DNA from: Candidatus Ratteibacteria bacterium
GTDB lineage: Bacteria; Ratteibacteria; UBA8468; B48-G9; DTJG01
NCBI GenBank assembly: GCA_049971295.1
Contig: JBMFLH010000027.1
Location: forward strand, 1 to 23,159
DNA length: 23,159 nt
Direction: 5' to 3'
Position numbers and translations under genes: made by a program. Below, one piece after another: positions 1,549 through 23,159 of this stretch (positions are counted from its first letter, which is position 1; each line of letters opens with the position of its first letter). Under the pieces are notes generated by a model, which had not been told where the DNA came from, searched no databases, and worked only from the letters and a program-made list of their open reading frames with translations.

Positions 1549-1564
1549 CTGCTCATCCTTTTAA

Positions 1565-1600
1565 TTGCATTATTATAATACTTTTGGTAAAATTATTAAA
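1565..1600. promoter_or_regulatory. Overlapping divergent sigma70-type promoters for argH (+) and topA (-)
   Basis: Plus strand: TTGCAT (1565-1570), 17 bp, TAAAAT (1588-1593) with a TG extended -10. Minus strand: TTTAAT (1600-1595), 17 bp, TATAAT (1577-1572). Confidence 0.55.
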
Positions 1601-1631
1601 TATGCGCATGGAAAACAGGTCCGGGAATAAT

Positions 1632-4252: not shown

Positions 4253-4255
4253 CTG

Positions 4256-5369: not shown

Positions 5370-5408
5370 ATTGTATCCTATGAAGTTCATAACTTTTGAT
5401 TTTAATAA

Positions 5409-5436
5409 ATTATAGAATGTTATAAAACTTTGTCAA
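5409..5436 (-). promoter_or_regulatory. Consensus sigma70 promoter for the parA operon
   Basis: Minus strand TTGACA (5436-5431), 16 bp, TATAAT (5414-5409). Confidence 0.75.
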
Positions 5437-5503
5437 GTCCTGGTATTTTATTTTCGAAGCAAAGTTGTTTTCTTCTCAATGTATACTTCTTGCATTTCTG
5501 GGA

Positions 5504-5532
5504 TTGCTTATCCGGAAAATAGGATGTAAAAT
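5504..5532 (+). promoter_or_regulatory. Sigma70 promoter for aroE, possibly giving a leaderless mRNA
   Basis: TTGCTT (5504-5509), 17 bp, TAAAAT (5527-5532). The expected +1 falls at about 5539, the A of the aroE ATG. Confidence 0.5.
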
Positions 5533-5538
5533 TTATGT

Positions 5539-6417: not shown

Positions 6418-6917
6418 AAATCGTACTTGCTGGTTTCAATGGAACGTGGAGAAAAGAAGCAGGGCATATACTTTCTATGAGGTTAGGTCGAGAATTTTTT
6501 GACATAGAGCAAATAATAGAACAAAAAGAAAACGATAGAATTGCTCATATTTCACAAATCAAAGGGTCTGCCTATGTACGAGACCTTGAAAATTCAATAA
6601 TAAAAAAAATTTCAAGCTTTGATAACTGCGTGATTTCTGTGGGACCTGATGCTATGGCTAATCAGAAAAGTCGTTTATTCCTTAAATCTAATGGTATCAT
6701 AATTTGGTTTACAGCAGAACCCTCTGTGATATTGCTTCGTCTTCATCCTGGGAAGGACAGCAAAACTTTATTGAAAAGACAGAATGCGATTTCTCACATT
6801 CGACAGATATTAAAAGAACATGATTATTCATGCTTTGCTGACAAGGTCCTTGATACTTCATTCCTTACCCCTGAAGAATCCGCAGATAAAGTTCAGCAGA
6901 TGTTGGCATGCTTTTAA
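6414..6917 (+). CDS. Shikimate kinase (AroK)-like protein with degenerate catalytic motifs
   Basis: 167 aa and collinear with AroK (IVLAGF.G, FFD, RDLE, VIS.G, ADKVLDT...PEE), ATGA-coupled to aroE. The P-loop reads GFNGTWRK instead of GxxGxGK[ST]. Confidence 0.8.
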   Translation: MKIVLAGFNGTWRKEAGHILSMRLGREFFDIEQIIEQKENDRIAHISQIKGSAYVRDLENSIIKKISSFDNCVISVGPDAMANQKSRLFLKSNGIIIWFTAEPSVILLRLHPGKDSKTLLKRQNAISHIRQILKEHDYSCFADKVLDTSFLTPEESADKVQQMLACF

Positions 6918-6960
6918 CATCGGTAGGTGAGCGTATCTCGCAATAAAGATATTTTAAATA

Positions 6961-8244
6961 TTATTCGGTTTCTTCTAATTCTATGCTTGCTCCAAGATTT
7001 TTCATTATGGAGAAAAATTCAGGGAAAGTGATTGAAACACATTCAGCATTACTCACTATTGTTTCTCCTTCTGCAATAAGCCCTGCAAGAGTCAGAGCCA
7101 TAACAACCCTGTGGTCCTTATGTCCATTAACAAATGTCCCCTTAAGCATGCTTTTATTTATAATAAGTCCGTCTTCAATTTCCTGAATGTTTGCGCCCAT
7201 TTTCGATAGTTCCTGTGCCATGACCTTTATTCTATCTGTTTCTTTGATTCGTGCCTGTGGAACATTGTAGAGCTTTGTAGTTCCTTCAGCAACGCAACCG
7301 AGTACAGCAAGCGCTGGCAGGGCATCAGGTGTGGAATTCAAGTCAATTTCTATTCCTTTCAGATCAGCTTTTTTAATCAAAATACCTTTTTCTGTGATTG
7401 TAATGGAAGCACCAGCGTTTCGTAGGTATTCAAGAACTTTTTTATCTCCTTGTACATCATTTAAATCAAGCCCTTTTATTAAAATTTCTGAATCCATCAT
7501 AGCCCCTGCAACAAGTGGAAATGTTGCTGAGCTCCAATCGCCTGGAATTTCTTTTTCAAACGGATGATACCTCTGGTTTCCAGAAATGTAAAAATATGTT
7601 AAGTCCTTTGTTTTATTATAAAGTATTTTCTGTTCATCCAGCCACATAAGGGTCATTCTGACATATGGTTCTTCACAAAGATTGATTACAGTAATTTCTG
7701 TGTCATCTGGAGCTAATGGTGTTGAAATAAGCAGAGATGATACAAATTGAGAATTTATTCCTGAAACAGTTGTTTTTCCGCCAGACAGCGGACCTTTTAC
7801 CTTCACAGGTGGTTTACCGTTATTATTGATTGATATCGCATATGCACCCAGATTTCTTAATGCAACAAGTAATGGTTCAACAGGTCTGCTTCTTAATGAT
7901 TCATCACCATCAAGAGTTACTTCAAAGTTACCAAGACAGCTTACCCCGCATATCAGATTAAAAGAAGTTCCTGAATTTTGAAGATCTAAAGTTTTCTGCG
8001 GATTTTTTGGATATTTATCAAAACCAATGACTGTCCAGCAATTTTTTTCTTTGTAAATCTCTGCTCCAAGATTTCTACACGCATTAACGGCTGCCATGGT
8101 ATCCAAAGAGTCAAGAGGATTGATAATTTTTGACTCTCCCCCGGCAAGAGATGCTATGACTACTGCTCTGATTGTGTGGGATTTGCTTGCAGGGATTGTT
8201 GCTGTGCCGTTCAATCTTTGAGTTTTCTTAATTTTGAGATTCAT
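6961..8244 (-). CDS. aroA: 3-phosphoshikimate 1-carboxyvinyltransferase (EPSP synthase)
   Basis: PASKSHTIRA, NSGT, SQF, RIKETDR and DHR. The plus strand has CAT at 8242-8244 and TTA at 6961-6963, so the gene is on the minus strand; the track's + label is wrong. Confidence 0.96.
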   Translation of the reverse strand: MNLKIKKTQRLNGTATIPASKSHTIRAVVIASLAGGESKIINPLDSLDTMAAVNACRNLGAEIYKEKNCWTVIGFDKYPKNPQKTLDLQNSGTSFNLICGVSCLGNFEVTLDGDESLRSRPVEPLLVALRNLGAYAISINNNGKPPVKVKGPLSGGKTTVSGINSQFVSSLLISTPLAPDDTEITVINLCEEPYVRMTLMWLDEQKILYNKTKDLTYFYISGNQRYHPFEKEIPGDWSSATFPLVAGAMMDSEILIKGLDLNDVQGDKKVLEYLRNAGASITITEKGILIKKADLKGIEIDLNSTPDALPALAVLGCVAEGTTKLYNVPQARIKETDRIKVMAQELSKMGANIQEIEDGLIINKSMLKGTFVNGHKDHRVVMALTLAGLIAEGETIVSNAECVSITFPEFFSIMKNLGASIELEETE

Positions 8245-8264
8245 TTTTAAAAACCTTTTTGTAA

Positions 8265-8323
8265 ATTATACCACTTTTTTCAGCTGATACAACAATGTGA
8301 CACTGTGAAAATCATGTTATAAT
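8265..8323. promoter_or_regulatory. Divergent extended -10 promoters for aroA (-) and aroB (+)
   Basis: Minus strand TGgTATAAT (8273-8265) with TTGTAT 16 bp upstream. Plus strand TGtTATAAT (8315-8323). Confidence 0.6.
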
Positions 8324-8353
8324 AAATTAAAAAACGTGCGAAGGATGAAATAA

Positions 8354-9415
8354 ATGGAAATATTGACAGTTTCTCTCAGCAATGTAATTTATCCGATATA
8401 TCTTGATTACCCTCTGAAAAAAATTGGCAATTTGTTTCACAAACATCAATGTGGAAAAAAAATACTGGTTATTACTGATGAAAATGTTGCCAGATTATAT
8501 GCTGACGTTGTTGTAAAAAGCGTTTCATCCATGAAGAATGTTCATTTATCAGTTGTAAAACCAGGGGAATCTTCTAAAACAATAAAAGTCGCTTATCAAT
8601 TGATAAAAGAATGTTCATTATTCGGGATGGATAGAACAGACACAATTATTGCCCTTGGGGGAGGGGTAATTAGTGACCTTGCTGGATTTGTTTCGGCAAT
8701 TTATTTAAGAGGGATTCGATTGATATCCATTCCCACGACACTTCTGGCACAGGTTGATGCGTCAGTAGGGGGTAAAACTGGTATTAATTTGCCATGGGGT
8801 AAAAATCTTGTGGGTGCGTTTCATCAACCGTTTTTCGTCGTGATGGACTTTTCTACTCTTGAAAGTTTGCCTGCAAGAGAAATATCTCAGGGTATGGCAG
8901 AAATTATCAAGTGCGCGGTGATAAGAAGTAAGAAGTTGTTTGACCTTCTGCAGGATGTACCAGGTGAAGATATCAAAAAGTATTTTAAGTTTCTTGTTCG
9001 CGAGTGTGTATCGATTAAAAAACGGGTTGTTGAATCTGATGAGAAAGAAGAAAAAGGAATACGGGAAATTTTGAATTTTGGGCATACGATAGGACATGCA
9101 ATTGAGATTAATAGCAAACTTTTAAATCATGGAGAATCCGTAGCCCTGGGAATGCTTGGAGAAACATTTCTTGCCGTGAAAAGAAACTTCTGTTCTTATT
9201 CGCTTTTTGAAAATCTCAGGGCTCTGGTCAAAAAATATGGGTTGCCAGTGAAATGTGATGTTTCAGTAAAAAGGGTAAGTCATTCACTTACGTTTGATAA
9301 AAAAATGAAAGGCGGAAAAATTAGATGCGTGATGCCCCTGAGAATCGGAGCTGTAAAAACAGGGGTTGAAATTTCGCCTGAAGAAGTAATATCAAACTGG
9401 GAGCAATGGCAATGA
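8354..9415 (+). CDS. aroB: 3-dehydroquinate synthase
   Basis: GESSKT, ALGGGVISDLAGF, PTTLLAQVDASVGGKTG, KNLVGAFHQP, LNFGHTIGHAIE, HGESVA and DKK. Confidence 0.96.
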   Translation: MEILTVSLSNVIYPIYLDYPLKKIGNLFHKHQCGKKILVITDENVARLYADVVVKSVSSMKNVHLSVVKPGESSKTIKVAYQLIKECSLFGMDRTDTIIALGGGVISDLAGFVSAIYLRGIRLISIPTTLLAQVDASVGGKTGINLPWGKNLVGAFHQPFFVVMDFSTLESLPAREISQGMAEIIKCAVIRSKKLFDLLQDVPGEDIKKYFKFLVRECVSIKKRVVESDEKEEKGIREILNFGHTIGHAIEINSKLLNHGESVALGMLGETFLAVKRNFCSYSLFENLRALVKKYGLPVKCDVSVKRVSHSLTFDKKMKGGKIRCVMPLRIGAVKTGVEISPEEVISNWEQWQ

Positions 9416-10491
9416 ATAAAAAAATTACACTTGATCATCTCAGGAAACAGATTGATGAGATCGATAAGAGGTTGATAAATCTTCTTAATGAAAGAGCGAA
9501 AATTGTACAGCAGGTGGCTGAAGTAAAAAAGCACAATAATCTTCCTGGTTTTGATCCTTCCAGAGAAAAAAAGATTATTGATACTTTACAGAGAATTAAC
9601 ACTGGACCGCTATCAAACAAAGATATAGAATCGGTTATGCGAGAAATTTTTAGAATTTACAGATCTCTCGGAAGGCCTTTGACTATTGCGTATTTAGGTC
9701 CAGCAGGGACATTTACTCATCAGGCGTCCTTGTTCCAGTTCGGAGACAAAAATGATTATATGCCATGTAGAACAATTGAATCTGTATTCAGAGAAGTTGA
9801 AAAGGGTAGGGCGGATTATGGCGTTGTGCCTATTGAGAATTCAAATGAAGGAGTGGTGACACACACACTTGACATGTTTGTTGATAGCGATTTGAAAATC
9901 ACAGCTGAGATTATTCTTGAAATTCATCATTTTTTACTTTCCAGGGAGAAGAACTTAACAAAAATTAAAAAGGTTTATTCTCATATCCAGGCATTAGGCC
10001 AGTGTCAGAGATGGCTTGAAGAAAATCTTCCTGGGGCAGTTCTGTTGGAAGCAGAAAGTACCGCGCATGCTGTGCGTCTTGCGCAAAAAGAGCCTTTTTC
10101 TGCGGCAATTGGTTCAGAAGCAGCAGCAGAAATTTATAAAATGAACATACTGGCACCAAATATTGAGGATTTCAGGGGAAATGCCACGAGATTTCTTGTT
10201 ATTGGGACACGTTATTCCCAGCCAAGCGGAGATGATAAGACCTCGATTATGTTTTCGATTAAGGATCGGGTGGGTGCGCTTCACGACATGCTTGTGCCGT
10301 TTAAAAAATACAATATCAATCTAACTCGGATTGAATCGAGACCTACAAAGAAAAAAGCGTGGGAATACATATTTTTTGTGGACTTCGAAGGACATAAAGA
10401 TGATGCTAACGTTTGTAAAGCCCTTGCTTTGCTTGAGAAAAATTGTGTATTTTTGAAAATCCTTGGTTCGTATCCAAAAGGAGGTCTTTGA
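9412..10491 (+). CDS. pheA: Bifunctional chorismate mutase / prephenate dehydratase (P-protein)
   Basis: N-terminal CM domain ([14 protein letters not shown]), then [19 protein letters not shown] and ACT domain [12 protein letters not shown] 9412 overlaps the aroB stop as ATGA; 9406 is an alternative start. Confidence 0.96.
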
Positions 10492-11513
10492 TGGCAGACC
10501 TTATTATTATGGCAGGGAATTCTTCTGATGAGGAAATTTCTGCTGTTATAGAAAAGATAAAATCTCTCGGTTTTGGTATTAATCTCAGTAAGGGAAAAGA
10601 AAAAATCATCATAGGGATTATTGGTGATACAAGACGACTTTCTGAGGAGGTTTTTTTATCTTTTCCCGGTGTGATTGAGGTTATCAATATTCTTAAGGAT
10701 TATAAATTGGTCAGTCGGGAATTTCATGTTGAAGATTCTTCCTTTTTTGTTGGAAATGTTCTGGTTGACAGGAATCGCCTTATTGTTGTGGCCGGTCCGT
10801 GTTCTGTAGAAAGTGAGGAACAGATGGTAAAAATCGCACATTTCATCCGATCCAGCGGAGGTAAAATTTTACGTGGTGGTGCCTATAAACCAAGAACATC
10901 ACCATACAGCTTTACAGGTCTGGGAAGAGAAGGGCTTGAGATCCTCAAGGAAGTAAAAAAACAAACAGGCCTTCCTGTGGTTACCGAAGTGATGACTCCT
11001 GAAGAGGTTGATATCGTCGCTGAAGTTGCAGACATGTTACAGATAGGAGCAAGAAACATGTACAATTATCGACTTCTTGAGAGAGTTGGAAGAACACAGG
11101 TTCCCGTGATGCTTAAAAGAAGTTTTCAGGCAACAATCAGTGAGTTTTTGAGTTGCGCCGAATATATTCTGAAGGAAGGAAATTCAAAGGTGATTCTGTG
11201 CGAACGGGGCATTCGCACTTTTGATTCGCAGTTTACAAGAAATTGTCTTGACTTAAACGCCATACCAGTTTTGAAAAAAGAAACGCATCTGCCTGTTTTT
11301 GTTGATCCAAGTCATGGAACCGGTAAGCGGGACCTTGTTATACCTATGTCGCGGGCGGCCATTGCTGCTGGAGCTGACGGACTTGTTATCGAAGTTCATC
11401 CAAAACCAGAAGAAGCATTGTCTGATGGATTCCAATCTCTCACCTTTGAAATGTTCAAAAGGTTGATGGAAGAGATTCAACCCTTTGCAAAAATTATGGG
11501 ACGAACTGTTTAG
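10491..11513 (+). CDS. aroF: DAHP synthase, type I-beta with N-terminal regulatory domain
   Basis: [44 protein letters not shown] and EVHP..ALSDG. Start ATG 10491 overlaps the pheA stop as TGATG, with a GGAGG RBS. Confidence 0.95.
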
Positions 11514-11528
11514 CGAAGAGGTTTTTCT

Positions 11529-12701
11529 ATGGATCTGATTGTTGAATGGAAAACACTAATTGATGAATCAACGTATCCGGCTGAATATCCATTTCCAGGG
11601 GAATGGGTGTCTTTTGGTAAAGGGTATCCAGTAAAAGGACTTGGTGGATGGGAAACTTCATTGATCGCACATGAAGTAAAAGATTTTGATCTGGATAGAG
11701 CCAAGCATCTTATGGTTTTATATTTGAAATCCTGTTATCGAGAAGAGGATGGAATGTTAGCATCAAAGGTGGTTGCAAAATCCGATAATTTGTATTCGAT
11801 GACAAAAAAAGGAAGGATATACAAATACAGTCATGCGCCTATCTGGAGTTTTACTGCAAGAAAAATTCTTGAAAAACAATGGGATGAGAAATTTGCTCTG
11901 CTTTGTTTTGATATTGGAATAAATAACCTTAAATGGTGGGAGGAAAACAGAAAAGATAGAATTGGATTATTTTGGTATTTTGATAGTTATCCTGACGAAA
12001 AGGAATCAGCGGAATCTGGCCACGAACATTCTCCACGATGGGATTTTACTGATCTTGGGCCATTTCCATGCATTGATTTAAACTGCCAGATCCTGATATA
12101 TCTTGAAAATCTCATATTTCTTGCTGAAAAACTTGGTAGAGTCAGAGAAAGGGACAAGATTTTTTCAATGTATGAGAATTTGAAGGCAACTTCCTGGAAA
12201 TATTTCTGGGATGAGTTAATTGGTATATTTTGTGATTACGACCTTACAGGTATGAATGCAAAGAAAACCACTGCTTCATTCTGGGCATTGATAAGCGGCC
12301 TGGCATCGCAAGAAGATACTGAGCGAATGGTAACTTTGCTACTGGACCCAAAGGAATTTTTTGCACCACACGGATTGCCTGTTGTATCACTTTCTGAACC
12401 AGCTTTTGAACTTGATTTCTGGAGAGGGGCGCTTTGGCCATCTGAAGTATTCTGGGTTTGTGCCGGCCTTCAGAAATATAAGTTTGATGAAATTGCGAAA
12501 AAAATTGCCAGGATATGTTTGGAAAATATTTTCAGCACTTTCAAAAATACTGGTAAATTCTGGGAGTTTTATAATCCTCTTGATGGAAATATATCTAAAC
12601 TAAAAAGGAATAAATCCAGCAAAGGGCCATTTCCAGATTGTCCTGCTTCAGTTCCTGTGATTAGTCTTGAAAAAATTGCAGAAGGAGAAAAGGTATGTTG
12701 A
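11529..12701 (+). CDS. GH63/MGH1-like (alpha/alpha)6-barrel glycoside hydrolase homologue
   Basis: ESGHEHSPRWD (family ESGxDNSPRW/F), IDLNC, FWDE..G.F.DY, FWRGALW (family YWRGxxW) and FWEFYNP. Substrate unknown. Confidence 0.8.
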   Translation: MDLIVEWKTLIDESTYPAEYPFPGEWVSFGKGYPVKGLGGWETSLIAHEVKDFDLDRAKHLMVLYLKSCYREEDGMLASKVVAKSDNLYSMTKKGRIYKYSHAPIWSFTARKILEKQWDEKFALLCFDIGINNLKWWEENRKDRIGLFWYFDSYPDEKESAESGHEHSPRWDFTDLGPFPCIDLNCQILIYLENLIFLAEKLGRVRERDKIFSMYENLKATSWKYFWDELIGIFCDYDLTGMNAKKTTASFWALISGLASQEDTERMVTLLLDPKEFFAPHGLPVVSLSEPAFELDFWRGALWPSEVFWVCAGLQKYKFDEIAKKIARICLENIFSTFKNTGKFWEFYNPLDGNISKLKRNKSSKGPFPDCPASVPVISLEKIAEGEKVC

Positions 12702-13810
12702 ACAGGATAAAATTTTTTCTACCAACAAGAATATTTTTTGGAGAAGGTTGTCTTTCTGAATTTTTGCCTGAAGCGGCTGTTTTTGGAAGAAATGCTTTGA
12801 TTGTGACAGGTAAATCTTCAGCACGAAGGACCGGTTTACTTGATACTGTATGCGGAATTTTAAAACACAGTGGCGTCATGTGTCACGTGTGTGACAATGT
12901 ATCTCCTGAGCCAGCAGTGAAAGATTGTGTTCGTGTGGCAGAAGCAGGTTTACAATATGATGCAGATATGCTTGTTGCTGTTGGTGGCGGCAGTGCCATG
13001 GATGTTGCAAAGGCAGCAGCTGTTTTGATGAAAAATCCAGGCCCCTGTCAGAGTTATTTTGGAGAAGAGAAATTTGCAAATGAACCTTTACCTGTTATTG
13101 CGGTCCCAACAACCTGCGGAAGCGGAAGTGAAGTTACCAGGTATGCGGTGATTATCGATGAACAAACAAATACCAAAAAAACTATTTCCTCAGAGAGAAT
13201 AATTCCGAAAATGGCAATACTTGATCCATCAACAATAAGAAGTTTGCCTGGGCCACTTATTGCAGGGACTGGCATGGATGCCCTGTGCCATGCGATTGAA
13301 GGGTTTTTATCAATAAAGGCGAATCATCTAACGCAACTATTTTCGCGGGCTGCAATCAGATTGATTATAGAAAACATTAATAATGCGACGACGGATTTGC
13401 ATATGGGACATATCGAATCAGTTTTCCTTGGTTCTCTGTACGCTGGCTTTGTAATCAATCACACCGGTACAATTTTCATCCATGGTATGGCATACGGCCT
13501 AACAATCAGACACAACGTTCATCACGGAACCGCTAATGCACTATGCCTGCCGTACGCCCTCTTGTTTTTGAAAAAACATGGATATGAGGAAGAAATAAAG
13601 GAACTGGAAGGATTTATTACTGCTCAGGCAATTATTGATATGAACAGGAGAATGGGACTTCCAGCAAGATTAAGGGATTTGGGTCTGCAGCAGAGCGAAA
13701 TTGGTATTCTTGCCGAAATGGCAGTAAAAGGTTGTGAGAGATCATTCAAAAACATGAAACAGCCATTTAGTAAGGACGATTTTGTTCAGATTTTTACATC
13801 TATGTTTTGA
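12695..13810 (+). CDS. Iron-containing alcohol dehydrogenase
   Basis: GGGSAMDVAKA, PTTCGSGSE, and metal ligands in DALCHAIE, HGMAY and HHGTANA. Confidence 0.92.
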   Translation: MLNRIKFFLPTRIFFGEGCLSEFLPEAAVFGRNALIVTGKSSARRTGLLDTVCGILKHSGVMCHVCDNVSPEPAVKDCVRVAEAGLQYDADMLVAVGGGSAMDVAKAAAVLMKNPGPCQSYFGEEKFANEPLPVIAVPTTCGSGSEVTRYAVIIDEQTNTKKTISSERIIPKMAILDPSTIRSLPGPLIAGTGMDALCHAIEGFLSIKANHLTQLFSRAAIRLIIENINNATTDLHMGHIESVFLGSLYAGFVINHTGTIFIHGMAYGLTIRHNVHHGTANALCLPYALLFLKKHGYEEEIKELEGFITAQAIIDMNRRMGLPARLRDLGLQQSEIGILAEMAVKGCERSFKNMKQPFSKDDFVQIFTSMF

Positions 13811-13835
13811 AGTTAATCACTTATGAAGTTCAGAA

Positions 13836-14762
13836 ATGAAGATTTCTAATATATTTCGATTTCATGCAAAGAATATTCCCTGCGTTGTAATGGGGATAGG
13901 GAAGTTTGATGGATTTCATGTTGGGCATCAAAAAATAGTAGACGAAATATTAAGGATATCTAACAATTTAAGGTGTATGCCGACGGTTTTTACCATCAGA
14001 AATTACCCAGCCAGCAGTGTCCTGGCTTTATGGAAGGAGCGACTTGATGCATTCAAAAGGCATGAAATTGAACTATGTCTGTGGGCAGATTTTATGGAAA
14101 TACAAAAACTTTCTCCAGAGATATTTCTGAATATTCTGCAATCCACCTGTAATATAAAGGGAATAGTTGTTGGAAAGGGTTTCAGATTTGGTTTTCATCG
14201 CAAAGGTGATACAAAATTTCTCAAGACCTGGGCAAAGCAGAAGGGAATTATTGTTTCTATTATAAAACCGGTCATTATGAATAATCACATTGTCAGCAGC
14301 AGTGTTATTAAGGAAATGATACGCAATTCTAAATTTTTTGAGGCAAGAGCAATGCTTGGCAGATGGTTTACTTTGAAAGGCAGGCATATTTCTGGTAGAA
14401 AATTAGGTAGAAGTATTGGTTTTCCTACGATAAATCTTGATTTATTAAATAAAAATTCACCATTGTCTGAAGGGATATATGCAGCGATTGTCAAACAGAG
14501 AACTAAAGTTTTCAAATCCGTGGTCTTTTATGGTTCTTCTCAAACCTTTCAAGGTCCTGTTTCATTTGAAATTCATATACTGGATACGAAGATTAATACA
14601 TCTGGTAATGAAATTTTTACTGTTATTCCTGTACAGAAAATAAGGGAAGTAGAAAAATTTGATAAAATACCAGCGCTTGTCAAGCAGATAGAAAGGGATA
14701 TTTCAAAAGCCAAAAAAATCTTTAATATTCTAAAACTTGACGACTTAAAAGAAAAGGTGTAG
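13836..14762 (+). CDS. ribF: Bifunctional FAD synthetase / riboflavin kinase
   Basis: GKFDGFHVGH, VVG..FRFG, VSSS.I, GRKLGRSIGFPTINL, GIY, EIH, IRE..KF and LVKQIERD. Confidence 0.92.
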   Translation: MKISNIFRFHAKNIPCVVMGIGKFDGFHVGHQKIVDEILRISNNLRCMPTVFTIRNYPASSVLALWKERLDAFKRHEIELCLWADFMEIQKLSPEIFLNILQSTCNIKGIVVGKGFRFGFHRKGDTKFLKTWAKQKGIIVSIIKPVIMNNHIVSSSVIKEMIRNSKFFEARAMLGRWFTLKGRHISGRKLGRSIGFPTINLDLLNKNSPLSEGIYAAIVKQRTKVFKSVVFYGSSQTFQGPVSFEIHILDTKINTSGNEIFTVIPVQKIREVEKFDKIPALVKQIERDISKAKKIFNILKLDDLKEKV

Positions 14763-14765
14763 TAT
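14737..14765 (+). promoter_or_regulatory. Putative sigma70 promoter for ppdK within the ribF 3' end
   Basis: TTGACG (14737-14742), 17 bp, TAGTAT (14760-14765). An AGGAGG RBS precedes the ppdK ATG. Confidence 0.5.
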
Positions 14766-14812
14766 TATGTCACCTTCCAAAAATTTTTTTCTGCGAAAAG
14801 GAGGAAAAGAAA

Positions 14813-17587
14813 ATGGACAAATATGTTTACTTCTTTGGAGGTGGTAGAGCAGATGGCAACGAAAGTATGAAGGAACTATTGGGGGGAAAAGGAGCCAATC
14901 TTGCTGAAATGGCAGGTCATCCGGATTTACGTTTGCCAGTTCCTCCTGGATTCACCATTACCACTGAAGTTTGTACTTATTATTACAAACACAACAGAAC
15001 ATACCCGAAAAGTTTGAAAAAAGAAGTTGAAGCAGCATTGAAAAGAGTGGAAAAACTTATGGGCCGAAAATTTGGGGATGCAGAAAATCCATTACTTGTT
15101 TCTGTCAGGTCTGGTGCAAGGCGATCAATGCCAGGTATGATGGAAACAGTTTTGAATGTTGGCTTAACTGAAAAGACGTTACCGGGGTTAATAAAGCAGA
15201 GTGGAGGTAACGAAAGATTTGCTTACGACGCCTATAGACGGCTCATTATGATGTATGCTGATGTGGTGATGGAAAAGGCGCAGGGCATTGAACCAGAAGA
15301 CGGTAAGGGTGTTAGAAAACTGATGGATGAGCGGCTTGAGGAACTAAAAATAAGAAAAAATTATAAAAATGATACAGATTTGACGGTGGAAGACCTTAAA
15401 GACCTTATCAAAGAATTCAAGCAAATCGTTAAACAGAGGTTTGGTAAAGAATTTCCTGATGATCCTGATGAGCAGTTGTGGGGTGCTATTGGTGCGGTGT
15501 TTGCATCATGGAATGGAAAACGAGCAGTTGAATATCGACGCATAGAAAAAATTCCTGATGACTGGGGAACTGCTGTTAATGTCCAGGCAATGGTGTTTGG
15601 CAATATGGGAGAAGATTCAGCTACAGGTGTGGCTTTTACACGTAATCCTGGCACAGGCGAACATCAATTCTATGGCGAGTATCTTGTTAATGCCCAGGGA
15701 GAAGATGTGGTAGCAGGAATCAGAACCCCGGCGCCGATCAACGAATACTCAAAGAATGAACAGAGTAAACATTTACCAACTCTTGAATCACTGATGCCTG
15801 AGGTTTACAAACAGCTGGATAAAATTCAAAAAAAGCTGGAAAAACATTATAAAGACATGCAGGATATTGAGTTTACCATTGAAAAAGGCAGACTTTTTAT
15901 TTTGCAATGCAGGGTGGGGAAAAGAAATGGTGTCGCAGCAGTCAGAATGGCGGCTGATATGTATAGGGAAAAACTTATTGACGCTGAGACCGCTGTCATG
16001 CGTGTTGCTCCGTCACAACTTGTGGAATTGTTGCTTCCCATGATTGACCCCAAAGCAGAAGCTGCGACAAAGCCCATAGCTAAAGGACTTCCTGCAGGTC
16101 CTGGTGGTGCCAGAGGAAGGGTGGTTTTTACTTCAAAAGATGCTGTTGAATGGGCTCAACGTGGCGAAAAGGTGATTCTGGTAAGGGAAGAGACATCACC
16201 TGAAGATGTTGACGGTATGCACAAGGCAGAGGCGATTCTTACCAGCAAAGGAGGTATGACATCCCATGCGGCACTTGTGGCAAGAGGGTGGGGGAAGTGT
16301 TGTATCGTGGGATGTTCAGATATTGAGATTGCAGCGGATAATAAATCCTTTAGAACGAAAAGTGGTGCGGTGATCAATGAAGGTGACTGGATTTCATTGA
16401 ATGGCACAAAAGGTCTTGTGTATCAGGGAAGTTTACCATTGGTTGATGTGGACCTCGACCATAATGAATCTTACCAATATTTCATGAAAATCGTGGATAA
16501 AGTAAGAAAACTAAAGGTGCGTGCTAATGCAGATACTCCTGAGGATGCAAAAAAAGCCCTCAAGTTTGGAGCAGAAGGGATTGGGCTTTTTCGTACAGAA
16601 CACATGTTTTATGGTGAAGGCAGTGACAAACCATTGTTTTTGCTCAGAAAGATGATTATGAGCAAAACAGTTGAAGAGCGAAAATCTGCTCTTGAAGAAT
16701 TATTCCCGTACATGAAGAATGACATAAAAGCCACGCTTGAGGTAATGAATGGATATCCGGTTACTATCCGTCTTCTTGACCCGCCACTTCATGAATTTGT
16801 TCCACACGATGAAGAAAAACTTCTTGCTCTTGGAAAAGAACTGGGCGTGGATGCCGATGAATTAAAAAGAAGGGCAGAATCTTTACGAGAAAATAATCCA
16901 ATGCTCGGTCATCGAGGGGTCAGACTTGGAATTACTTATCCTGAAATCTCTGAAATGCAGTTCAGAGCCATCCTCGAGGCAGCGGCAGAGCTGATTAAAG
17001 ATGGGAAAAAGGCATTGCCAGAAATCATGATTCCAGTAACATGTACGGTTGCAGAGCTTACGCATCAAAAGAGAATCTTTGAACGTGTTTATCAGGAGGT
17101 ATGTTCGAAATTTGGGTTGAAGAAAATACCCCATATGTTTGGCACAATGATTGAAATTCCAAGGGCAGCCCTTACTGCTGATAGAATGGCTGAGGTTGCT
17201 GAATTCTTTTCGTTTGGTACAAATGACCTTACTCAAATGGGATTTGGATTTTCAAGAGACGACATTGGAAGTTTTCTTCCCGACTATCTTGCAGGGAAAA
17301 TTCTTCCTGCAGACCCATTTCAGACTATAGACCAGGAAGGAATTGGTGAACTGATTTCTATCGGCATACAGCGGGGAAGAGCAACATGCGAGAACCTAAA
17401 GGTTGGTATTTGTGGTGAACATGGAGGAGACCCTGATTCTGTAAAATTCTGCCACAGAGCTGGCATGAACTATGTGTCCTGTTCTCCATTCAGAGTTTGT
17501 ATCGCAAGACATGCGGCCGCCCAGGCAGTGGTGGAAGAGAAGTTAAAAAGTTTGCAGAACAGAAAAAAGAAAACACGCAAAAAATAA
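14813..17587 (+). CDS. ppdK: Pyruvate, phosphate dikinase
   Basis: LLGGKGANLAEM, PLLVSVRSGA, AQGEDVVAGIRTP, phospho-His motif GGMTSHAALVAR, FSFGTNDLTQ and GICGEHGGDP; 924 aa. Confidence 0.98.
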   Translation: MDKYVYFFGGGRADGNESMKELLGGKGANLAEMAGHPDLRLPVPPGFTITTEVCTYYYKHNRTYPKSLKKEVEAALKRVEKLMGRKFGDAENPLLVSVRSGARRSMPGMMETVLNVGLTEKTLPGLIKQSGGNERFAYDAYRRLIMMYADVVMEKAQGIEPEDGKGVRKLMDERLEELKIRKNYKNDTDLTVEDLKDLIKEFKQIVKQRFGKEFPDDPDEQLWGAIGAVFASWNGKRAVEYRRIEKIPDDWGTAVNVQAMVFGNMGEDSATGVAFTRNPGTGEHQFYGEYLVNAQGEDVVAGIRTPAPINEYSKNEQSKHLPTLESLMPEVYKQLDKIQKKLEKHYKDMQDIEFTIEKGRLFILQCRVGKRNGVAAVRMAADMYREKLIDAETAVMRVAPSQLVELLLPMIDPKAEAATKPIAKGLPAGPGGARGRVVFTSKDAVEWAQRGEKVILVREETSPEDVDGMHKAEAILTSKGGMTSHAALVARGWGKCCIVGCSDIEIAADNKSFRTKSGAVINEGDWISLNGTKGLVYQGSLPLVDVDLDHNESYQYFMKIVDKVRKLKVRANADTPEDAKKALKFGAEGIGLFRTEHMFYGEGSDKPLFLLRKMIMSKTVEERKSALEELFPYMKNDIKATLEVMNGYPVTIRLLDPPLHEFVPHDEEKLLALGKELGVDADELKRRAESLRENNPMLGHRGVRLGITYPEISEMQFRAILEAAAELIKDGKKALPEIMIPVTCTVAELTHQKRIFERVYQEVCSKFGLKKIPHMFGTMIEIPRAALTADRMAEVAEFFSFGTNDLTQMGFGFSRDDIGSFLPDYLAGKILPADPFQTIDQEGIGELISIGIQRGRATCENLKVGICGEHGGDPDSVKFCHRAGMNYVSCSPFRVCIARHAAAQAVVEEKLKSLQNRKKKTRKK

Positions 17588-17909: not shown

Positions 17910-17938
17910 TTGCAAGGCACATTAAAGCCGGGTATAAT
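17910..17938 (+). promoter_or_regulatory. Sigma70 promoter for the DUF362-tatAC operon
   Basis: TTGCAA (17910-17915), 17 bp, TATAAT (17933-17938). Confidence 0.7.
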
Positions 17939-18020
17939 GTTCTTTAGCCAGTTTCTATGATAACAAAAAGGTTGAGGATTGTATACGTAAGTATCTGATA
18001 ATCATAAAAAAGGAGTCAGA

Positions 18021-18914
18021 ATGGATAGAAAAGAATTTTTGAAAACCAGTCTTGCCGCTGTTGCTGGATTGGTATTGGCGAGGTACTCAAAGGTTTCTGG
18101 TGGTCCTGTAAAATCTGCTGGTCAGAGAGCAGAAATTTTTGTCGCAAAGGACGCAGATCCTTCAGAGTTGACTGCAAAGGCTATAAAATCACTGGGTGGG
18201 ATGGAGAAGTTTGTGAAAAAGGGCGCAAGGGTTGTAATAAAGCCGAACATAGCATGGAATAGAAGTCCTGAGCAGGCGGCAAACACACATCCAGATGTCG
18301 TGGGAACAATTGTGAGTCTTTGTAAAAAAGCAGGCGCATCAACTGTGATCGTTACTGATGTGACCTGTCATCCCTGGCAAACTACCTATATTACTACGGG
18401 TATTAAAGAGGCTGTGGAAAAAGCAGGGGGGATTATGAAAGGGCCTGAAAAATTCAGGCACGTTTCTATTCCTTCTGGAGTTGTGCTTAAAGAGGCTGAT
18501 ATTCTTGAAGACATTCTTGATGCAGATGTTCTTATTAATGTTCCTGTTGTCAAGGTTCACGGTTCCCAGGCAAAGGTTACCATTTCTATGAAAAACTGGA
18601 TGGGAGCAGTAAGAGATAGGGGATATTTTCATAGGACAGATCTCAATCAATGTATTACAGACATTTCATCGTTTTTAAAGCCTACTTTTACAATTGTTGA
18701 TGCCACAAGAATCCTTCTAACAAATGGACCTCAGGGACCCGGCGAGGTGAAAGAAACGAAAATGGTCTTTGGTGGATTTGATTTTGTTGCACTTGATGCT
18801 TTTGGCGCGACACTTCTCGGAATCAATCCAGCAGAGGTGAGACACATTCAGATTTCAGGGAAAATGGGACTTGGTGAATCAGACCTATCAAAGGTGAAGG
18901 TAAATTATATATAA
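18021..18914 (+). CDS. DUF362-family protein with a Tat-like signal peptide
   Basis: LGGMEKFVKKGARVVIKPNIAW, ANTHPDVV, INVPVVKVH..VTISMKNWMG, LLTNGPQG and DFVALDA. N-terminus MDRKEFLK followed by a hydrophobic stretch. AGGAG RBS. Confidence 0.85.
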   Translation: MDRKEFLKTSLAAVAGLVLARYSKVSGGPVKSAGQRAEIFVAKDADPSELTAKAIKSLGGMEKFVKKGARVVIKPNIAWNRSPEQAANTHPDVVGTIVSLCKKAGASTVIVTDVTCHPWQTTYITTGIKEAVEKAGGIMKGPEKFRHVSIPSGVVLKEADILEDILDADVLINVPVVKVHGSQAKVTISMKNWMGAVRDRGYFHRTDLNQCITDISSFLKPTFTIVDATRILLTNGPQGPGEVKETKMVFGGFDFVALDAFGATLLGINPAEVRHIQISGKMGLGESDLSKVKVNYI

Positions 18915-18931
18915 AAATTCAGGGCTGCTTT

Positions 18932-19552
18932 ATGAAAAAAAACATTGTACGAAGACTTGTTCAGATTCTGAGTGTTTTCTTATTTTTTTTCCTGTTGAAA
19001 AAAACAGGAGCATTTCCTGTTTCTGAAAAATTGCCATTAAGTATCTACTATCAGGTGGATGGACTACTGACAATGTCAGTGGTAATAGCGACAAGAACCA
19101 TTGGTTTATTCATCCTCCCTGGAATATTATTGTTGTCAGTTATAGCAATAATTGGTAACTTTTTTTGCTGGTGGATTTGTCCATTGGGTGGCATTATTGA
19201 TTATCTTAACTTATTTACATTGAGAAAACGATGGAAAATTTCATTATTTATACCAGGGTGGTTGAGGAAAGGAGGATTAATAATTTTAATGATTACGATT
19301 TTATCTGCTATATTTTCTGGTTCATTACCTTTTATAGGTTTTGTTTTTGATCCTTTTGTTATTATGGGTCAAGCCGCAACAGGCCTGAAATTTTGGATTT
19401 GTTTTTTTGTAATTATTATTATCACTGGTATCGTATTTCCACGATTATGGTGCAATTGTTTTTGCCCTCTTGGCAAACTATACACGCTTACTGGTACGAG
19501 GGTAAAATTAAACATACTTAGAAGAAAATTAACAAAGAAAGGTTATGAATAG
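18932..19552 (+). CDS. NapH/MauN-like polytopic membrane protein (4Fe-4S binding family) without the C-terminal ferredoxin domain
   Basis: RRLVQ N-terminus, several hydrophobic segments, two CxxxCP motifs (GNFFCWWICPLG, RLWCNCFCPLG) and FDPF. Confidence 0.8.
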   Translation: MKKNIVRRLVQILSVFLFFFLLKKTGAFPVSEKLPLSIYYQVDGLLTMSVVIATRTIGLFILPGILLLSVIAIIGNFFCWWICPLGGIIDYLNLFTLRKRWKISLFIPGWLRKGGLIILMITILSAIFSGSLPFIGFVFDPFVIMGQAATGLKFWICFFVIIIITGIVFPRLWCNCFCPLGKLYTLTGTRVKLNILRRKLTKKGYE

Positions 19553-20135
19553 AAAAGAGTTCCTTGTTTCACTCGGCACGACAATTTTTTTTGCTCTTTT
19601 ACCTGGATTCCTTAGACCTGGAAGAAGTTATTCGTCATCAATTATACGACCGCCTGGTTCTCTTGAGGAGGACAAATTTCCATTGTTTTGCATCAGATGT
19701 GGGCAGTGTATAAGGACGTGCCCATCTAAATGCTTGAAGCAGGTGGAAATTAAAAAATCCTTAAACCATTGGGCAACACCAGAGATTATTCCAAGGCAAA
19801 AGGGTTGTATATTATGTCAGAATTGCTCAAAAGTATGTCCCACAGGTGCAATAAGAACTGTAGATCATGATAGCATAAAAATTGGCACTGCTACGATATA
19901 CAGAGACGAGTGTCTCGTATGGACTCATAAGAAGGAATGTCTTGTGTGTCTTGAGTTTTGTCCGGTTCAGGCAATATACCTCGATGAAAAGGGTAGGCCG
20001 ATTGTAAATCCCAGAGTCTGTGTTGGCTGCGGACTCTGCGAGCAAAATTGTCCTGTGACAAAAAAAGATGCTGCGATAAGGGTTTCAACAGCAGGTGAAA
20101 GAAGGTTTCATATAAATGATGGCAAATATTATTGA
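19545..20135 (+). CDS. NapG/MauM-like polyferredoxin (four predicted 4Fe-4S clusters) with a Tat-like signal
   Basis: IRPPGS..E..F, CIRCGQCIRTCP, CILCQNCSKVCP, C...CLVCLEFCP and CVGCGLCEQNCP. N-terminus MNRKEFLVSLG. Confidence 0.88.
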   Translation: MNRKEFLVSLGTTIFFALLPGFLRPGRSYSSSIIRPPGSLEEDKFPLFCIRCGQCIRTCPSKCLKQVEIKKSLNHWATPEIIPRQKGCILCQNCSKVCPTGAIRTVDHDSIKIGTATIYRDECLVWTHKKECLVCLEFCPVQAIYLDEKGRPIVNPRVCVGCGLCEQNCPVTKKDAAIRVSTAGERRFHINDGKYY

Positions 20136-20161
20136 CGTAAGACATTCACAAGGAGGACCTT

Positions 20162-20338
20162 ATGAATCTTGGGGTTCAAGAGCTGTTTTTAATAGGCCTG
20201 ATTATTTTACTTTTGTTTGGTGCAAAGAGATTGCCTGAAATTGGGAGAGCATTCGGGAAGGCCATTGGCGAATTTAGAAAAGGATTAAAAGAAGTTGAAA
20301 AGGTAGTTGAGGAAAAAGAGGAAAAAGAAAATAAGTGA
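20162..20338 (+). CDS. tatA: Twin-arginine translocase subunit TatA
   Basis: 58 aa, not in the ORF track: MNLGVQELFLIGLIILLLFGAKRLPEIGRAFGKAIGEFRKGLKEVEKVVEEKEEKENK. Has the FG hinge, an amphipathic helix and an AGGAGG RBS. Confidence 0.96.
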   Translation: MNLGVQELFLIGLIILLLFGAKRLPEIGRAFGKAIGEFRKGLKEVEKVVEEKEEKENK

Positions 20339-21084
20339 GAATCATGAGAATGGATTCTCAGAATGCGACATTTTTTGACCATCTTGAAGAGCTCAGACGA
20401 AGAATTCTGTTTATACTTTTGTGGTTTTTTTTGTGCTGTGCTATTAGTTATGTATTTAATAATCAAATACTTAAGCTTGTTATACAACCCTTGAATTCGT
20501 TTCAAAAAAGTCCGGTTTTTGTTTCTCCAGTTGAACCATTTTTTTCTGTTATAAAACTTACGCTTTTCTTTGGCCTTCTTTTAAGCTGTCCTTTTATATT
20601 TTTTCAGATTTATGTGTTTGTAAAACCGGCACTTAGCATTGAACAAGCAAGGAACTTCCTATTTTGTCTGATTGCTGGGTTGGTTCTGTTTTATGCTGGT
20701 ATCCTGTCAGGGTATTATTTCATTGTTCCAATGGGACTAAAGATACTTTTTGCTTTCGGAGGAAATTTGATAGTTCCCCTGGTAACAATAGGATATTATC
20801 TCACATTTTTTATCTGGATATCTCTTATGCTCGGTATTGTTTTTCAGTTACCTGTTGTCCTGGCTTTTCTTGGAATTTCTGAGATTATTAGTATTGGTCA
20901 AATGAAGAAATTAAGAAAATTTGTATATGTGGGTGCCTTTGTGATTTCTGCAATCATTACTCCAACCACAGATGCCATAACACAGACAATTATTGCAGGA
21001 ACGCTGATTTTTCTTTATGAGATTACACTAATTTTTCTTTGGATTTTTTTGAAGCATAAGATATTAGAAAACAAAAACTTATAA
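20335..21084 (+). CDS. tatC: Twin-arginine translocase subunit TatC
   Basis: DHLEELRRR, P.EPF, FVKPAL, FQLP, AIITPTTD and LYE, with about six hydrophobic segments. GTG 20335 overlaps the tatA stop; ATG 20344 and 20350 are alternatives. Confidence 0.95.
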   Translation: MRIMRMDSQNATFFDHLEELRRRILFILLWFFLCCAISYVFNNQILKLVIQPLNSFQKSPVFVSPVEPFFSVIKLTLFFGLLLSCPFIFFQIYVFVKPALSIEQARNFLFCLIAGLVLFYAGILSGYYFIVPMGLKILFAFGGNLIVPLVTIGYYLTFFIWISLMLGIVFQLPVVLAFLGISEIISIGQMKKLRKFVYVGAFVISAIITPTTDAITQTIIAGTLIFLYEITLIFLWIFLKHKILENKNL

Positions 21085-21400: not shown

Positions 21401-22138
21401 TTAATCCGGCTTTGGGCTGGTTTTTAATATTTCCACCATTTCTCGTACTGCTTGGTGAAGTCCTGTGAATACAGCCCGACATATAATGCTGTAGCCAATA
21501 TTGAGCTCCTCTATGTGCCTGATATTCAATATTGGATAAATGTTTCTATAGTCAATGCCGTGTCCGGCGTGTGTTTTCAATCCTGTTGAAACCGCAAATT
21601 CTGCTGCCTTGCGAATTTTTTGAAGTTCTTGATTCCATGCTTCATCTTGATCTTTTTCAAAGTACTCTGCATATTTACCAGTGTGTAGTTCTATGGCGTC
21701 TGCGCCTGCTTCTTTTGACGCTTCGACCTGTTGAAGGTCGGGTTCTATAAACAGGCTCACAACAATTCCTTTTTCATGGAAGAGTTTTATTACTTCCTTG
21801 ATCTTTTCATGGTGTGATAATACGTCAAGACCACCTTCAGTTGTCAATTCCTCCCTTTTTTCAGGTACAAGCGTTACCTGAGATGGCTGGACTTGCAGGG
21901 CAATTTTTACAATTTCTTCGCTTATTGCCATTTCAAGATTCAGTCTCCTCACCGTATTTTTTAATGCGAAAACATCCCTGTCCTGGATATGTCTTCTGTC
22001 TTCTCTTAAATGGCAAACAATTGAGTCGCACCCTGCTATTTCACATATTCCAGCAGCAAATACAGGATCAGGAAAATGTCCTTTTCTTGCCTGCCTTATT
22101 GTGGCAATATGGTCAACATTAACTCCTAATTTTTTCAT
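21401..22138 (-). CDS. pdxJ: Pyridoxine 5'-phosphate synthase
   Basis: LGVNVDHIATIRQAR, HLREDRRHIQ, LNLEMA, LVPEKREELTTEGGLD, IELHTG, HAGHG and ELNIG. Confidence 0.97.
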   Translation of the reverse strand: MKKLGVNVDHIATIRQARKGHFPDPVFAAGICEIAGCDSIVCHLREDRRHIQDRDVFALKNTVRRLNLEMAISEEIVKIALQVQPSQVTLVPEKREELTTEGGLDVLSHHEKIKEVIKLFHEKGIVVSLFIEPDLQQVEASKEAGADAIELHTGKYAEYFEKDQDEAWNQELQKIRKAAEFAVSTGLKTHAGHGIDYRNIYPILNIRHIEELNIGYSIICRAVFTGLHQAVREMVEILKTSPKPD

Positions 22139-23159
22139 TGTCTACCTCCCAGTATTTCTTTCAAATTCTTGACCAGCAATTGATTTTCTGAAGGTTTCCC
22201 AATCGTTATTCGTAGGAAGTTGTCTTTTATTCCAAATCCTGACATCGGCCGAACAATAATTCCCCTTTTTTCAAGTTCTTTGCATAGAAATTCCGCATTA
22301 TGACTGGATTTGCAGAATAAGAAATTTGTTTCACTCGGAAACGCCTTAAATCCAATCTCTGTTAAATGTTTGAGTAGGTAGCGTTTTTGTTTTCTGTTGT
22401 TTTCAATGGATTTTTTTACAAATTCGGTATCTTCTAACGCAGCAGATGCTGCCTGTTGGGCACAACTACTTGTATTGAATGGTGGCCTAATTTTTTCCAT
22501 GATGCCGATGATGTCTTGTGAGGAAATTCCATATCCGATTCTTAGTCCGGCAAGTCCGTATATTTTGGAAAAGGTCCTTGCGACAATGACATTTTTTCTA
22601 TTAATCCATTCCAGAGCGCTTCCAAAGTCCGGGTCTTCGGCATATTCAATATATGCCTCATCTGATAGCACAAGGATTCTGTCTGGAATATTTTGTAGAA
22701 ATCGTTCAAGTTGTATTTTTTTTATATGAGAACCTGTGGGATTATTGGGGTTACAAAGGATGATCATTTTTGTCCTGGAAGTAATTTTTTCAAAAAAGGC
22801 ATCAAGGTTATATGAAAAGTCGCTGTTAAGGTTTACCATTACTGGTTTTACACCGAAGGCAAAGGCAAGAATTTTGTAGATGATAAAAGATGGGTGCGGG
22901 AAAATCATTTCATCCTCTGGTTCGCAGAAGGACTGGATTGCCATGCTGATGATTTCGCTTGAACCACTTCCTACAATGATATTGCTGCTTTTTACATTCA
23001 GTAATCCTGCCAATTTTTCTTTCAAAAGATACGCAGAACCTTCAGGATATCTGTTGATCTCATAAATCCTTTTTTTCAGTGCTTTAACGGCTGCAGGAGA
23101 AGGTCCAAAAGGATTCTCATTTGAAGCCAGTTTCACAATTTTTGCTAATTTTCTTTCCC
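22135..23159 (-). CDS. hisC: Histidinol-phosphate aminotransferase, 5' end beyond the window
   Basis: KLASNENPFG, RYP, NPNNPTG, DEAY and RTFSKIYGLAGLRIGY (PLP Lys). The frame stays open past the track's GTG to the window edge (ERKLAKIVKL). ATGA overlap with pdxJ. Confidence 0.94.
   Translation of the reverse strand, partial: ERKLAKIVKLASNENPFGPSPAAVKALKKRIYEINRYPEGSAYLLKEKLAGLLNVKSSNIIVGSGSSEIISMAIQSFCEPEDEMIFPHPSFIIYKILAFAFGVKPVMVNLNSDFSYNLDAFFEKITSRTKMIILCNPNNPTGSHIKKIQLERFLQNIPDRILVLSDEAYIEYAEDPDFGSALEWINRKNVIVARTFSKIYGLAGLRIGYGISSQDIIGIMEKIRPPFNTSSCAQQAASAALEDTEFVKKSIENNRKQKRYLLKHLTEIGFKAFPSETNFLFCKSSHNAEFLCKELEKRGIIVRPMSGFGIKDNFLRITIGKPSENQLLVKNLKEILGGRQ

Follow-up and report, generated by a model that had tools for sequence, protein, structure and literature searches.

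A minimal Tat operon of Candidatus Ratteibacteria with Arg-Lys signals and Gln at the Glu103 position of TatC, a paired change that recurs in other bacterial groups

The 23,159-nt stretch of DNA analysed here as a whole (the window; contig JBMFLH010000027.1 of assembly GCA_049971295.1, Candidatus Ratteibacteria bacterium) carries a compact operon for a twin-arginine translocation (Tat) system, in the order DUF362 protein, NapH-like membrane protein, NapG-like polyferredoxin, tatA and tatC, with intergenic gaps of 17, -8, 26 and -4 nt. Both putative cargo proteins have Arg-Lys (RK) in place of Arg-Arg (RR) in their signals, and TatC has Gln at the position of Glu103 of the Escherichia coli protein. 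This paired change is real, conserved and recurrent, and the operon most likely represents a Tat system of the known kind in which the second position of the signal would be relaxed and biased towards Lys.

The two signals read MDRKEFLK at the N-terminus of the DUF362 protein (18021) and MNRKEFLV at that of the polyferredoxin (19545), with the codons AGA AAA in both, and a re-reading of the DNA agreed on this point with the sequence-only reading that preceded this analysis. Two consecutive arginines are absent from both signals, which contain a helix cap, the consensus Phe-Leu, a moderately hydrophobic h-region and a basic c-region; RR occupies the same register in the sister-genus orthologues. 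Among 3790 N-termini of the source genome (1.89 Mb, 38% GC, 92.5% complete), a symmetric RR/RK hidden Markov model (HMM) of the signal scored only these two, at 27.3 and 19.8 bits, both being training sequences, with the next-best N-terminus at 7.8 bits. A looser motif scan of the genome found no credible RRxF signal, and TIGR01409 reported neither window signal at E-values up to 10. The genome-wide count proposed earlier as a check returned RK signals only (two), and profile searches of the same genome detected no second tatC and no tatB, tatA being the sole TatA/B/E-family gene found. The layout is therefore that of a minimal TatAC, with one TatA and one TatC, each a single match in a 92.5%-complete genome, and with co-encoded cargo. 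It is likely that the DUF362 protein and the NapG/MauM-like polyferredoxin are the cargo of this system.

From 20617 the altered loop of TatC reads FVKPALSIEQAR, in which the codons GAA and CAA occupy 20641-20643 and 20644-20646, respectively. It aligned without gaps in phmmer to the TatC proteins of Aquifex (4b4a, FIEPALYSHEKR) and E. coli (9dzz, FIAPALYKHERR), which places Gln, nine residues past the Phe94 equivalent, in the Glu103 column, as had been proposed, and the window Glu in column 102. Phe94 is kept (20617-20619), Lys is present at position 96 and Ser (20635-20637) replaces Tyr100. The HLEELR motif with Glu15, described in the sequence-only reading as intact, was found at 20380 and aligned to that of E. 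coli. Thus, the site for the first Arg and Phe (His12, Glu15 and Phe94) is retained, and the second-Arg site (Glu103 and Tyr100) is not kept, Gln and Ser standing there instead; Tyr100 is also missing in the sister genera with RR and Glu103. The equivalents of Arg17, Asp211 and Gln215 are kept in the alignment to 9dzz, and the polar residues Thr208, Asp211 and Gln215 that bind TatA/B are present, with Ala at Met205. The 120 top-scoring database homologues include 15 members of the window clade, with Gln (14) or His (1) at column 103, and 105 others, of which 95 have Glu; His12 and Glu15 are present in all 120. The nearest named homologues carry the labels Candidatus Omnitrophica or Candidatus Ratteibacteria. 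Lys at column 96 (20623-20625) is fixed in 15/15 clade members; it recurs in the Gln103 TatCs of Alistipes and of genome G143, but many Glu103 TatCs have it too. Phe at TatC position 9, reportedly a suppressor change in E. coli, was dropped as a relevant change, being common in canonical TatCs as well (59/103).

In the structure of E. coli TatBC with MdoD, the signal's first Arg makes a water-mediated bond to Glu15 and stacks against Phe94, and the second Arg forms a salt bridge with Glu103, packs on Tyr100 and faces the lipid head groups (PMC13323110). A second structure is in agreement, the second Arg being unresolved there (bioRxiv 10.1101/2025.09.16.676506). Since the second Arg contacts Glu103 in the structure, Gln103 and RK represent changes in the two halves of one contact. 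Phe94 and Glu103 have been described as almost completely invariant (PMC5539426), and the twin arginine/Glu103 as almost invariant (PMC5539426, PMC7317946); E103K is rescuable by more hydrophobic signals, and laboratory suppressors of TatC E103K and F94D have been described (PMC5539426). No paper on TatC E103Q or on DUF362 with a twin arginine, and no description of natural co-variation between RK signals and TatC, was found in searches of mostly open-access full texts.

The operon is present in nine of the 11 other genomes of the genus, and two have no tatC match. In the ten operon-bearing genomes all 20 signals are RK and column 103 of TatC is Gln (9) or His (1), while 20 genomes from other genera of the order, with the same operon, all have Glu103 and RR in 36 of 37 readable signals; the co-occurrence of RK and Gln across relatives that had been suggested as a test was thus observed. 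The DUF362 protein has RK in 10/10 genus orthologues and RR in 18/18 sister-genus orthologues, and the polyferredoxin has RK in 10/10 and RR in 18/19, the lone RK being that of the G022 polyferredoxin. None of the ten genomes has a broken tatA, tatC or signal, the tatC of G006 spanning two contigs. Within the genus, the Lys codon switched between AAA and AAG at least five times and to Arg not once, whereas of the 23 columns in the two cargo proteins that hold basic residues only, with Lys in the majority, 12 mix Lys and Arg. Arg1 and Phe are invariant, and the h-region is otherwise variable and slightly more hydrophobic. The sister genera are equally AT-rich, yet hold RR with AGA/AGG codons. 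The genus TatCs have the lowest PF00902 scores in the phylum. No credible further cargo was found in the 11 other genus genomes, where extra matches were weak, internal or in stop-containing frames (one left unfetched).

A related genus has a different tatA-tatC operon with Thr103 (L029 G012:C84; L030 G014:C14), which stands between an ApbE-like/FMN-binding pair and nuoABC-like genes, as read from translations. In one of the two genomes (G012) an RK Rieske protein, a weak match, lies about 20 kb from tatC.

The paired change was also found in other lineages. A scan of GTDB with DNA patterns on TatC alone gave 98 matches, of which 80 were examined and 66 were TatCs with Gln or His at column 103; a metagenome scan with the same patterns gave at least 119 matches, with 104 TatCs among the matches listed, and Glu103 controls were taken from family searches in the same lineages. 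A Tat-like signal was present within 5 kb of 108 of the 306 distinct TatCs. Non-Glu TatCs had only RK neighbours in 31 cases (one doubtful) and only RR in five, and Glu103 TatCs had only RR in 69, both in two and only RK in one. Two loci had been dropped before this tally, L295 (Gln, with an RR-like shadow frame) and L425 (Glu, with an RR-like non-signal), and L068 (His, the doubtful RK) was counted here and left out of the trees. Pairs of RK and non-Glu TatC come from records with the titles Phascolarctobacterium, Christensenellales, Omnitrophota and Thermoleophilia; their cargo is unrelated and includes classic Tat families, namely, molybdopterin enzymes, Rieske proteins, flavoproteins and GFO oxidoreductases; the Thermoleophilia loci with RK signals have 69% GC. 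Across lineages, at least six non-Glu residues occupy column 103 (Gln, His, Thr, Val, Tyr and Phe). Eight genomes encode both types of TatC (G042, G099, G043, G124, G141, G276, G308 and G137), and in these a Gln paralogue lies beside an RK or, in G124, an RA signal, with RR signals adjoining the Glu paralogue or sitting elsewhere; a second Gln paralogue of G137 is located beside an RR protein. In a sample of Christensenellales tatC was present in only 13/301 genomes, with no further non-Glu case in the 11 loci fetched, and in an even sample of Bacteroidota Glu103 was found in 29/29 TatCs examined (six further matched genomes being outside this count).

Several other TatC variants and neighbours were observed. 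Some TatCs of the order Christensenellales (L205 G043:C124, L499-L502, L504 and L508) keep Glu103, have Ala at Glu15 and adjoin RR signals, a mirror-image loss. A large group in records titled Gaiellales/Thermoleophilia (L064-L131) has His103 and Phe at position 99, with few neighbouring signals; in G130, a genome of this group, one of three signals is non-RR. In G292 and G141 (L599, L606 and L607) ferritin-like proteins with R-L-x-F-L signals adjoin Gln103 TatC paralogues, and in Acidaminococcaceae (L113, L140 and L825) a protein of 380-410 aa, with an RK or RA signal and no Pfam match, is encoded beside a private Gln103 TatC in divergent orientation.

A balanced signal model, built from 15 RK and 15 RR training sequences, was applied to 23 genomes in which the only TatC found is non-Glu or both types are present, and to Glu103 genomes. 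Under a uniform counting rule (Arg1 and Phe, Trp or Leu in register, at least 12 bits, the rest left out), genomes whose only found TatC is non-Glu yielded 30 RR, 46 RK, two RA and one RG signals (49/79 non-RR), and Glu103 genomes 89 RR, eight RK, one RA and one RQ (10/99 non-RR); search thresholds varied from E 0.05 to 1, some genomes contributed training rows and three of the 24 G131 matches were unfetched. The per-genome non-RR share differed between 14 and 14 genomes (Mann-Whitney p 2e-4, kin not being independent), and in nine non-Glu genomes outside the training set 20/32 signals were non-RR. The excess persists in the two lower GC bins, and GC content as its cause is not supported up to 62% GC. 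The impression that the Gln103 TatCs of Balneolaceae and Alistipes serve RR signals only proved to be an artefact of the RR-biased TIGR01409 and was overturned by the balanced model. RR, RK, RA and RG signals occur together in G125, which has one Gln103 TatC, and RL signals are found near Thermoleophilia Gln paralogues. The RA and RG signals of G125 sit on GFO/IDH/MocA oxidoreductases (L565, L569 and L580).

In TatC trees, which were built with the loop removed and are unrooted, column 103 changes state 6-7 times among 107 rows and at least 14 times among 135 rows. Among eight independent pairs on the 135-row tree, 5.1 differed in the same direction, 0.0 in the opposite direction and 2.8 not at all; clusters at 50% identity, which only approximate independence, gave 9/12 versus 0/20. 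The association between loss of Glu103 and RK is large and one-directional but falls formally short of being established.

With moderate confidence, these data point to a functional, cargo-dedicated minimal TatAC in which the second-arginine pocket would have been given up and Lys favoured at position 2. The signal would still dock as a helix via Arg1 and Phe, and position 2, lacking the salt bridge, would be kept basic mainly by contact with the lipid head groups, perhaps with a hydrogen bond to Gln. As the salt bridge would be gone and the head-group contact would remain, Lys may then be as good as or better than Arg and now be held by selection. The many residues at the non-Glu column 103 fit the loss of a contact better than the gain of a new one, and position 2 also takes Ala, Gly and Leu near or with non-Glu TatCs. 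RK may have come first, tolerated by a Glu103 TatC, followed by release of Glu103, which would be easiest where TatC has few cargo proteins, and then by the spread or fixation of RK. The earlier suggestion that receptor and signals co-evolved gains support from the co-variation in the genus, between paralogues of the same genome and in other phyla; the altered specificity suggested with it would hold only as a relaxation with Lys bias, since non-Glu genomes still have RR in 30 of 79 signals and also contain RA and RG.

Several observations weigh against this reading. In E. coli, E103A served as a transport-inactive, binding-negative control (PMC13323110), and E103G/K leave TatC nearly inactive (PMC3712464). 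The independent-pairs sign test did not reach 0.05, with a median p of 0.125 for five pairs on the 107-row trees and 0.0625 (range 0.016-0.25) for the eight pairs. The control lineages were picked after RK had been seen, the pattern scans cover only TatCs that combine Gln or His with a consensus loop, and the order of events rests on few neighbours (G022, L177, L178, G654 and G648) on an unrooted tree. Five non-Glu TatCs lie beside RR signals only (L115, L136, L278, L349 and L399), and G164 and G617 have a non-Glu TatC with RR signals only. As the genomes are incomplete, a second Glu103 tatC may have been missed. RK occurs alongside Glu103 in several lineages (G022, L177, L178, G031, G654 and G648), an observation that the sequence-only reading had named as contrary to its proposal and that applies in a small way, to 1/37 sister-genus signals and 8/99 signals of Glu103 genomes. 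The high-GC bin shows little (1/4 versus 1/23, small numbers), and h-regions show no genome-wide gain in hydrophobicity (p 0.26), so that general hydrophobic compensation is not supported.

A true specificity switch, in which Gln103, perhaps with the clade-specific Lys96, would form a Lys-selective site discriminating against RR and Gln103 paralogues would run private export lanes cut off from the general Tat system, is the main rival to such relaxation, though a doubtful one. Equally doubtful is its wider form, with Glu103 as a natural specificity dial, where Gln would give an RK-preferring translocase of many origins and a private RK export lane beside an RR lane. The fixation of Lys in two genes genus-wide despite synonymous codon turnover is consistent with a switch, as are the excess of RK over RR in non-Glu genomes (46 versus 30), the RK signals even of the 69%-GC Thermoleophilia loci, the RK/Gln and RR/Glu operons side by side within one genome and the retention of Gln or His at 103 in 15/15 clade members. 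However, genomes whose single found TatC has Gln103 are rich in RR (10/20 signals in G131 and 2/4 in G148), position 2 accepts Ala, Gly and Leu, and column 103 is varied; a strict RK-only switch is contradicted by the RR-rich genomes.

Independent drift is unlikely. Under it RK, one A/G transition away in a 38%-GC genome, would be a conservative change that is tolerated, Glu103 would have been lost separately, and ancestry and the choice of lineages would account for the link. The coexistence of RK with Glu103 would suit this explanation, as would a genus contrast that is one event, the non-significant sign test and a proteome Lys/(Lys+Arg) of 0.64 in the source genome. It is opposed by the equally AT-rich sister genera that retain RR, by the excess in GC-matched bins up to 62% GC, by the absence, on average, of an independent pair in the opposite direction and by same-genome paralogues that differ as predicted.

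A decayed or bypassed system, with a dead translocase and cargo that is cytoplasmic or travels by Sec, is highly improbable. The crippling effect of losing Glu103 in E. coli TatC would suit decay, as would the PF00902 scores of the genus TatCs, the lowest in the phylum, and the 2/11 other genus genomes without a tatC match. Against it stand the intact genes and signals of the ten operon-bearing genomes, the invariant Arg1 and Phe and the retained equivalents of His12, Glu15, Arg17, Phe94, Asp211 and Gln215; moreover, an Fe-S polyferredoxin is not expected to travel by Sec. Least credible of all is a takeover of the salt bridge by the neighbouring Glu in column 102, which would leave the site functionally canonical and was the caveat raised in the earlier reading: Glu occupies column 102 in the window, in three further members of the genus and in some of the Thermoleophilia paralogues with Gln103, but the caveat fails because only 4/10 genus members have it, the remaining six having Ile, Gln, Gln, Thr, Tyr and Lys there and yet RK signals.

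With relaxation of the second position as the preferred reading, the TatAC would export a folded Fe-S polyferredoxin and a DUF362 enzyme of putatively LarA-like fold, and the NapH-like membrane protein would couple the exported cargo to the membrane electron pool, giving an exported redox enzyme with an electron link to the membrane. The DUF362 protein carries invariant Lys, His, Asn and Asp residues, which suggest that it is an enzyme. Its structure model (pLDDT 91) has an N-terminal helix at residues 3-22 and a disordered linker at 23-34, and the top Foldseek matches are LarA-like (E 6e-7, TMq 0.43-0.53, rmsd 4-9 A), while a search against PDB sequences gave no match below E 0.6. The polyferredoxin scores below the NCBIfam cut-offs for NapG (94/269 bits) and MauM/NapG (83/179 bits), and the membrane protein is far below those of the NapH models (49.5/234 and 48.8/213 bits). 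A second DUF362 protein of the source genome, without a signal and fused to a ferredoxin domain, is encoded at G000:C15:17888-18991; a weak homologue of similar size is present in most relatives.

The window system shares with E. coli TatBC the TatC fold family, His12, Glu15 and Phe94, and signals with a helix cap, Arg1, Phe and an h-region, but differs in having Gln for Glu103, Ser for Tyr100, RK in all detected cargo and no TatB. Natural single-arginine Tat signals were reportedly described by Hinsley et al. in 2001, and the TtrB signal carries Lys-Arg. Such signals and the E103K/F94D suppressors likewise indicate that neither both arginines nor Glu103 are strictly needed for transport; however, the former are lone cargo exceptions with a normal TatC and the latter selected mutants, whereas in the systems described here both receptor and cargo have changed naturally, and repeatedly so. 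The minimal TatAC of Bacillus subtilis is linked to PhoD. TatAdCd and TatAyCy of that organism resemble the window in having one TatA and one TatC encoded with cargo, and in paralogues with separate cargo per genome. Unlike these, the window has an altered cargo motif and contact residue, while loop variation is described for the Bacillus isoforms, with no mention of Glu103 loss in the passages on these isoforms (PMC3827258). In NapGH/MauMN pairs and the dual Sec/Tat polyferredoxin PFD, a CxxxCP membrane protein is likewise followed by a Tat-tagged polyferredoxin (PMC5449189), but the window proteins score far below the cut-offs, the membrane part is without a ferredoxin domain and the partner is DUF362 rather than nitrate reductase; by description, the window pair resembles a split, two-gene form of PFD (PMC5449189). 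The LarA-superfamily nickel-pincer enzymes are the best fold match to the DUF362 model (E 6e-7, TMq about 0.5), but the DUF362 protein is 11-14% identical to them, shorter and predicted to be exported.

The features of the operon are listed in Table 1. An AAGGAG sequence precedes the DUF362 start at 18010-18015, and the NapH/MauN-like gene overlaps the next start by 8 nt. TatC profile scores exceed the curated cut-offs (PF00902 178.6/25.1; TIGR00945 171.6/132.7).

Table 1. Coordinates of the operon genes, signal motifs and TatC sites in the window
Feature	Position	Strand	Support
Candidate sigma70-type promoter (TTGCAA-17-TATAAT) in the spacer that follows ppdK	17910..17938	+	10/12 matches; not above chance
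DUF362 protein, 297 aa, R-K-x-F-L-K Tat-like signal	18021..18914	+	PF04015 171.6 bits
Arg-Lys pair (AGA AAA) in the DUF362 signal	18027..18032	+	codons read directly
Membrane protein resembling NapH/MauN, 206 aa, with two CxxxCP motifs and lacking a C-terminal ferredoxin domain	18932..19552	+	PF12801 40.8 bits, hydropathy
NapG/MauM-like polyferredoxin, 196 aa, R-K-x-F-L signal	19545..20135	+	Fer4 families
Arg-Lys pair (AGA AAA) in the polyferredoxin signal	19551..19556	+	codons read directly
tatA, 58 aa	20162..20338	+	PF02416 66.6 bits; TIGR01411 66.6 vs cut-off 53.9
tatC, 249 aa, GTG start, ATG alternatives at 20344 and 20350	20335..21084	+	PF00902, TIGR00945
His12-Glu15 equivalents of TatC (HLEELR), intact	20380..20391	+	E. 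coli alignment
TatC TM2-TM3 loop, Phe94 to column 103	20617..20646	+	alignment to E. coli/Aquifex TatC

The promoter scan counted 15 sites in the region, where shuffled sequences gave 12.3 +/- 3.8, the terminator scan was likewise not above shuffles, and no Rfam family matched within the window. The remaining parts of the window (1-17587 and 21401-23136) contain housekeeping genes, including topA, argH, lysA, parA with a small downstream open reading frame (4256-4609), shikimate/aromatic genes, a glycoside hydrolase, Fe-ADH, ribF, a ppdK-like gene, pdxJ and an aminotransferase-like gene.

The recurrence of the paired change in several unrelated bacterial groups implies that natural Tat systems hold to the twin arginine less strictly than has been assumed, and the natural loss of both halves of the contact provides an evolutionary test of the structure. 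Such systems give direct access to the question of which purpose the second arginine serves, be it affinity, avoidance of Sec or proofreading, and the window offers a clean test case, with a single tatA and tatC, two proteins as cargo and the canonical RR/Glu version of the operon in sister genera. Residue 103 of TatC predicts where RR-based annotation under-calls exported redox proteins, as illustrated by TIGR01409, which missed both window signals and made non-Glu genomes appear RR-only until the balanced model was used. If Glu103 were indeed a specificity dial, the two lanes would represent a ready-made, partly orthogonal export pair, and RR-only predictors would overlook about 60% of these genomes' Tat cargo.

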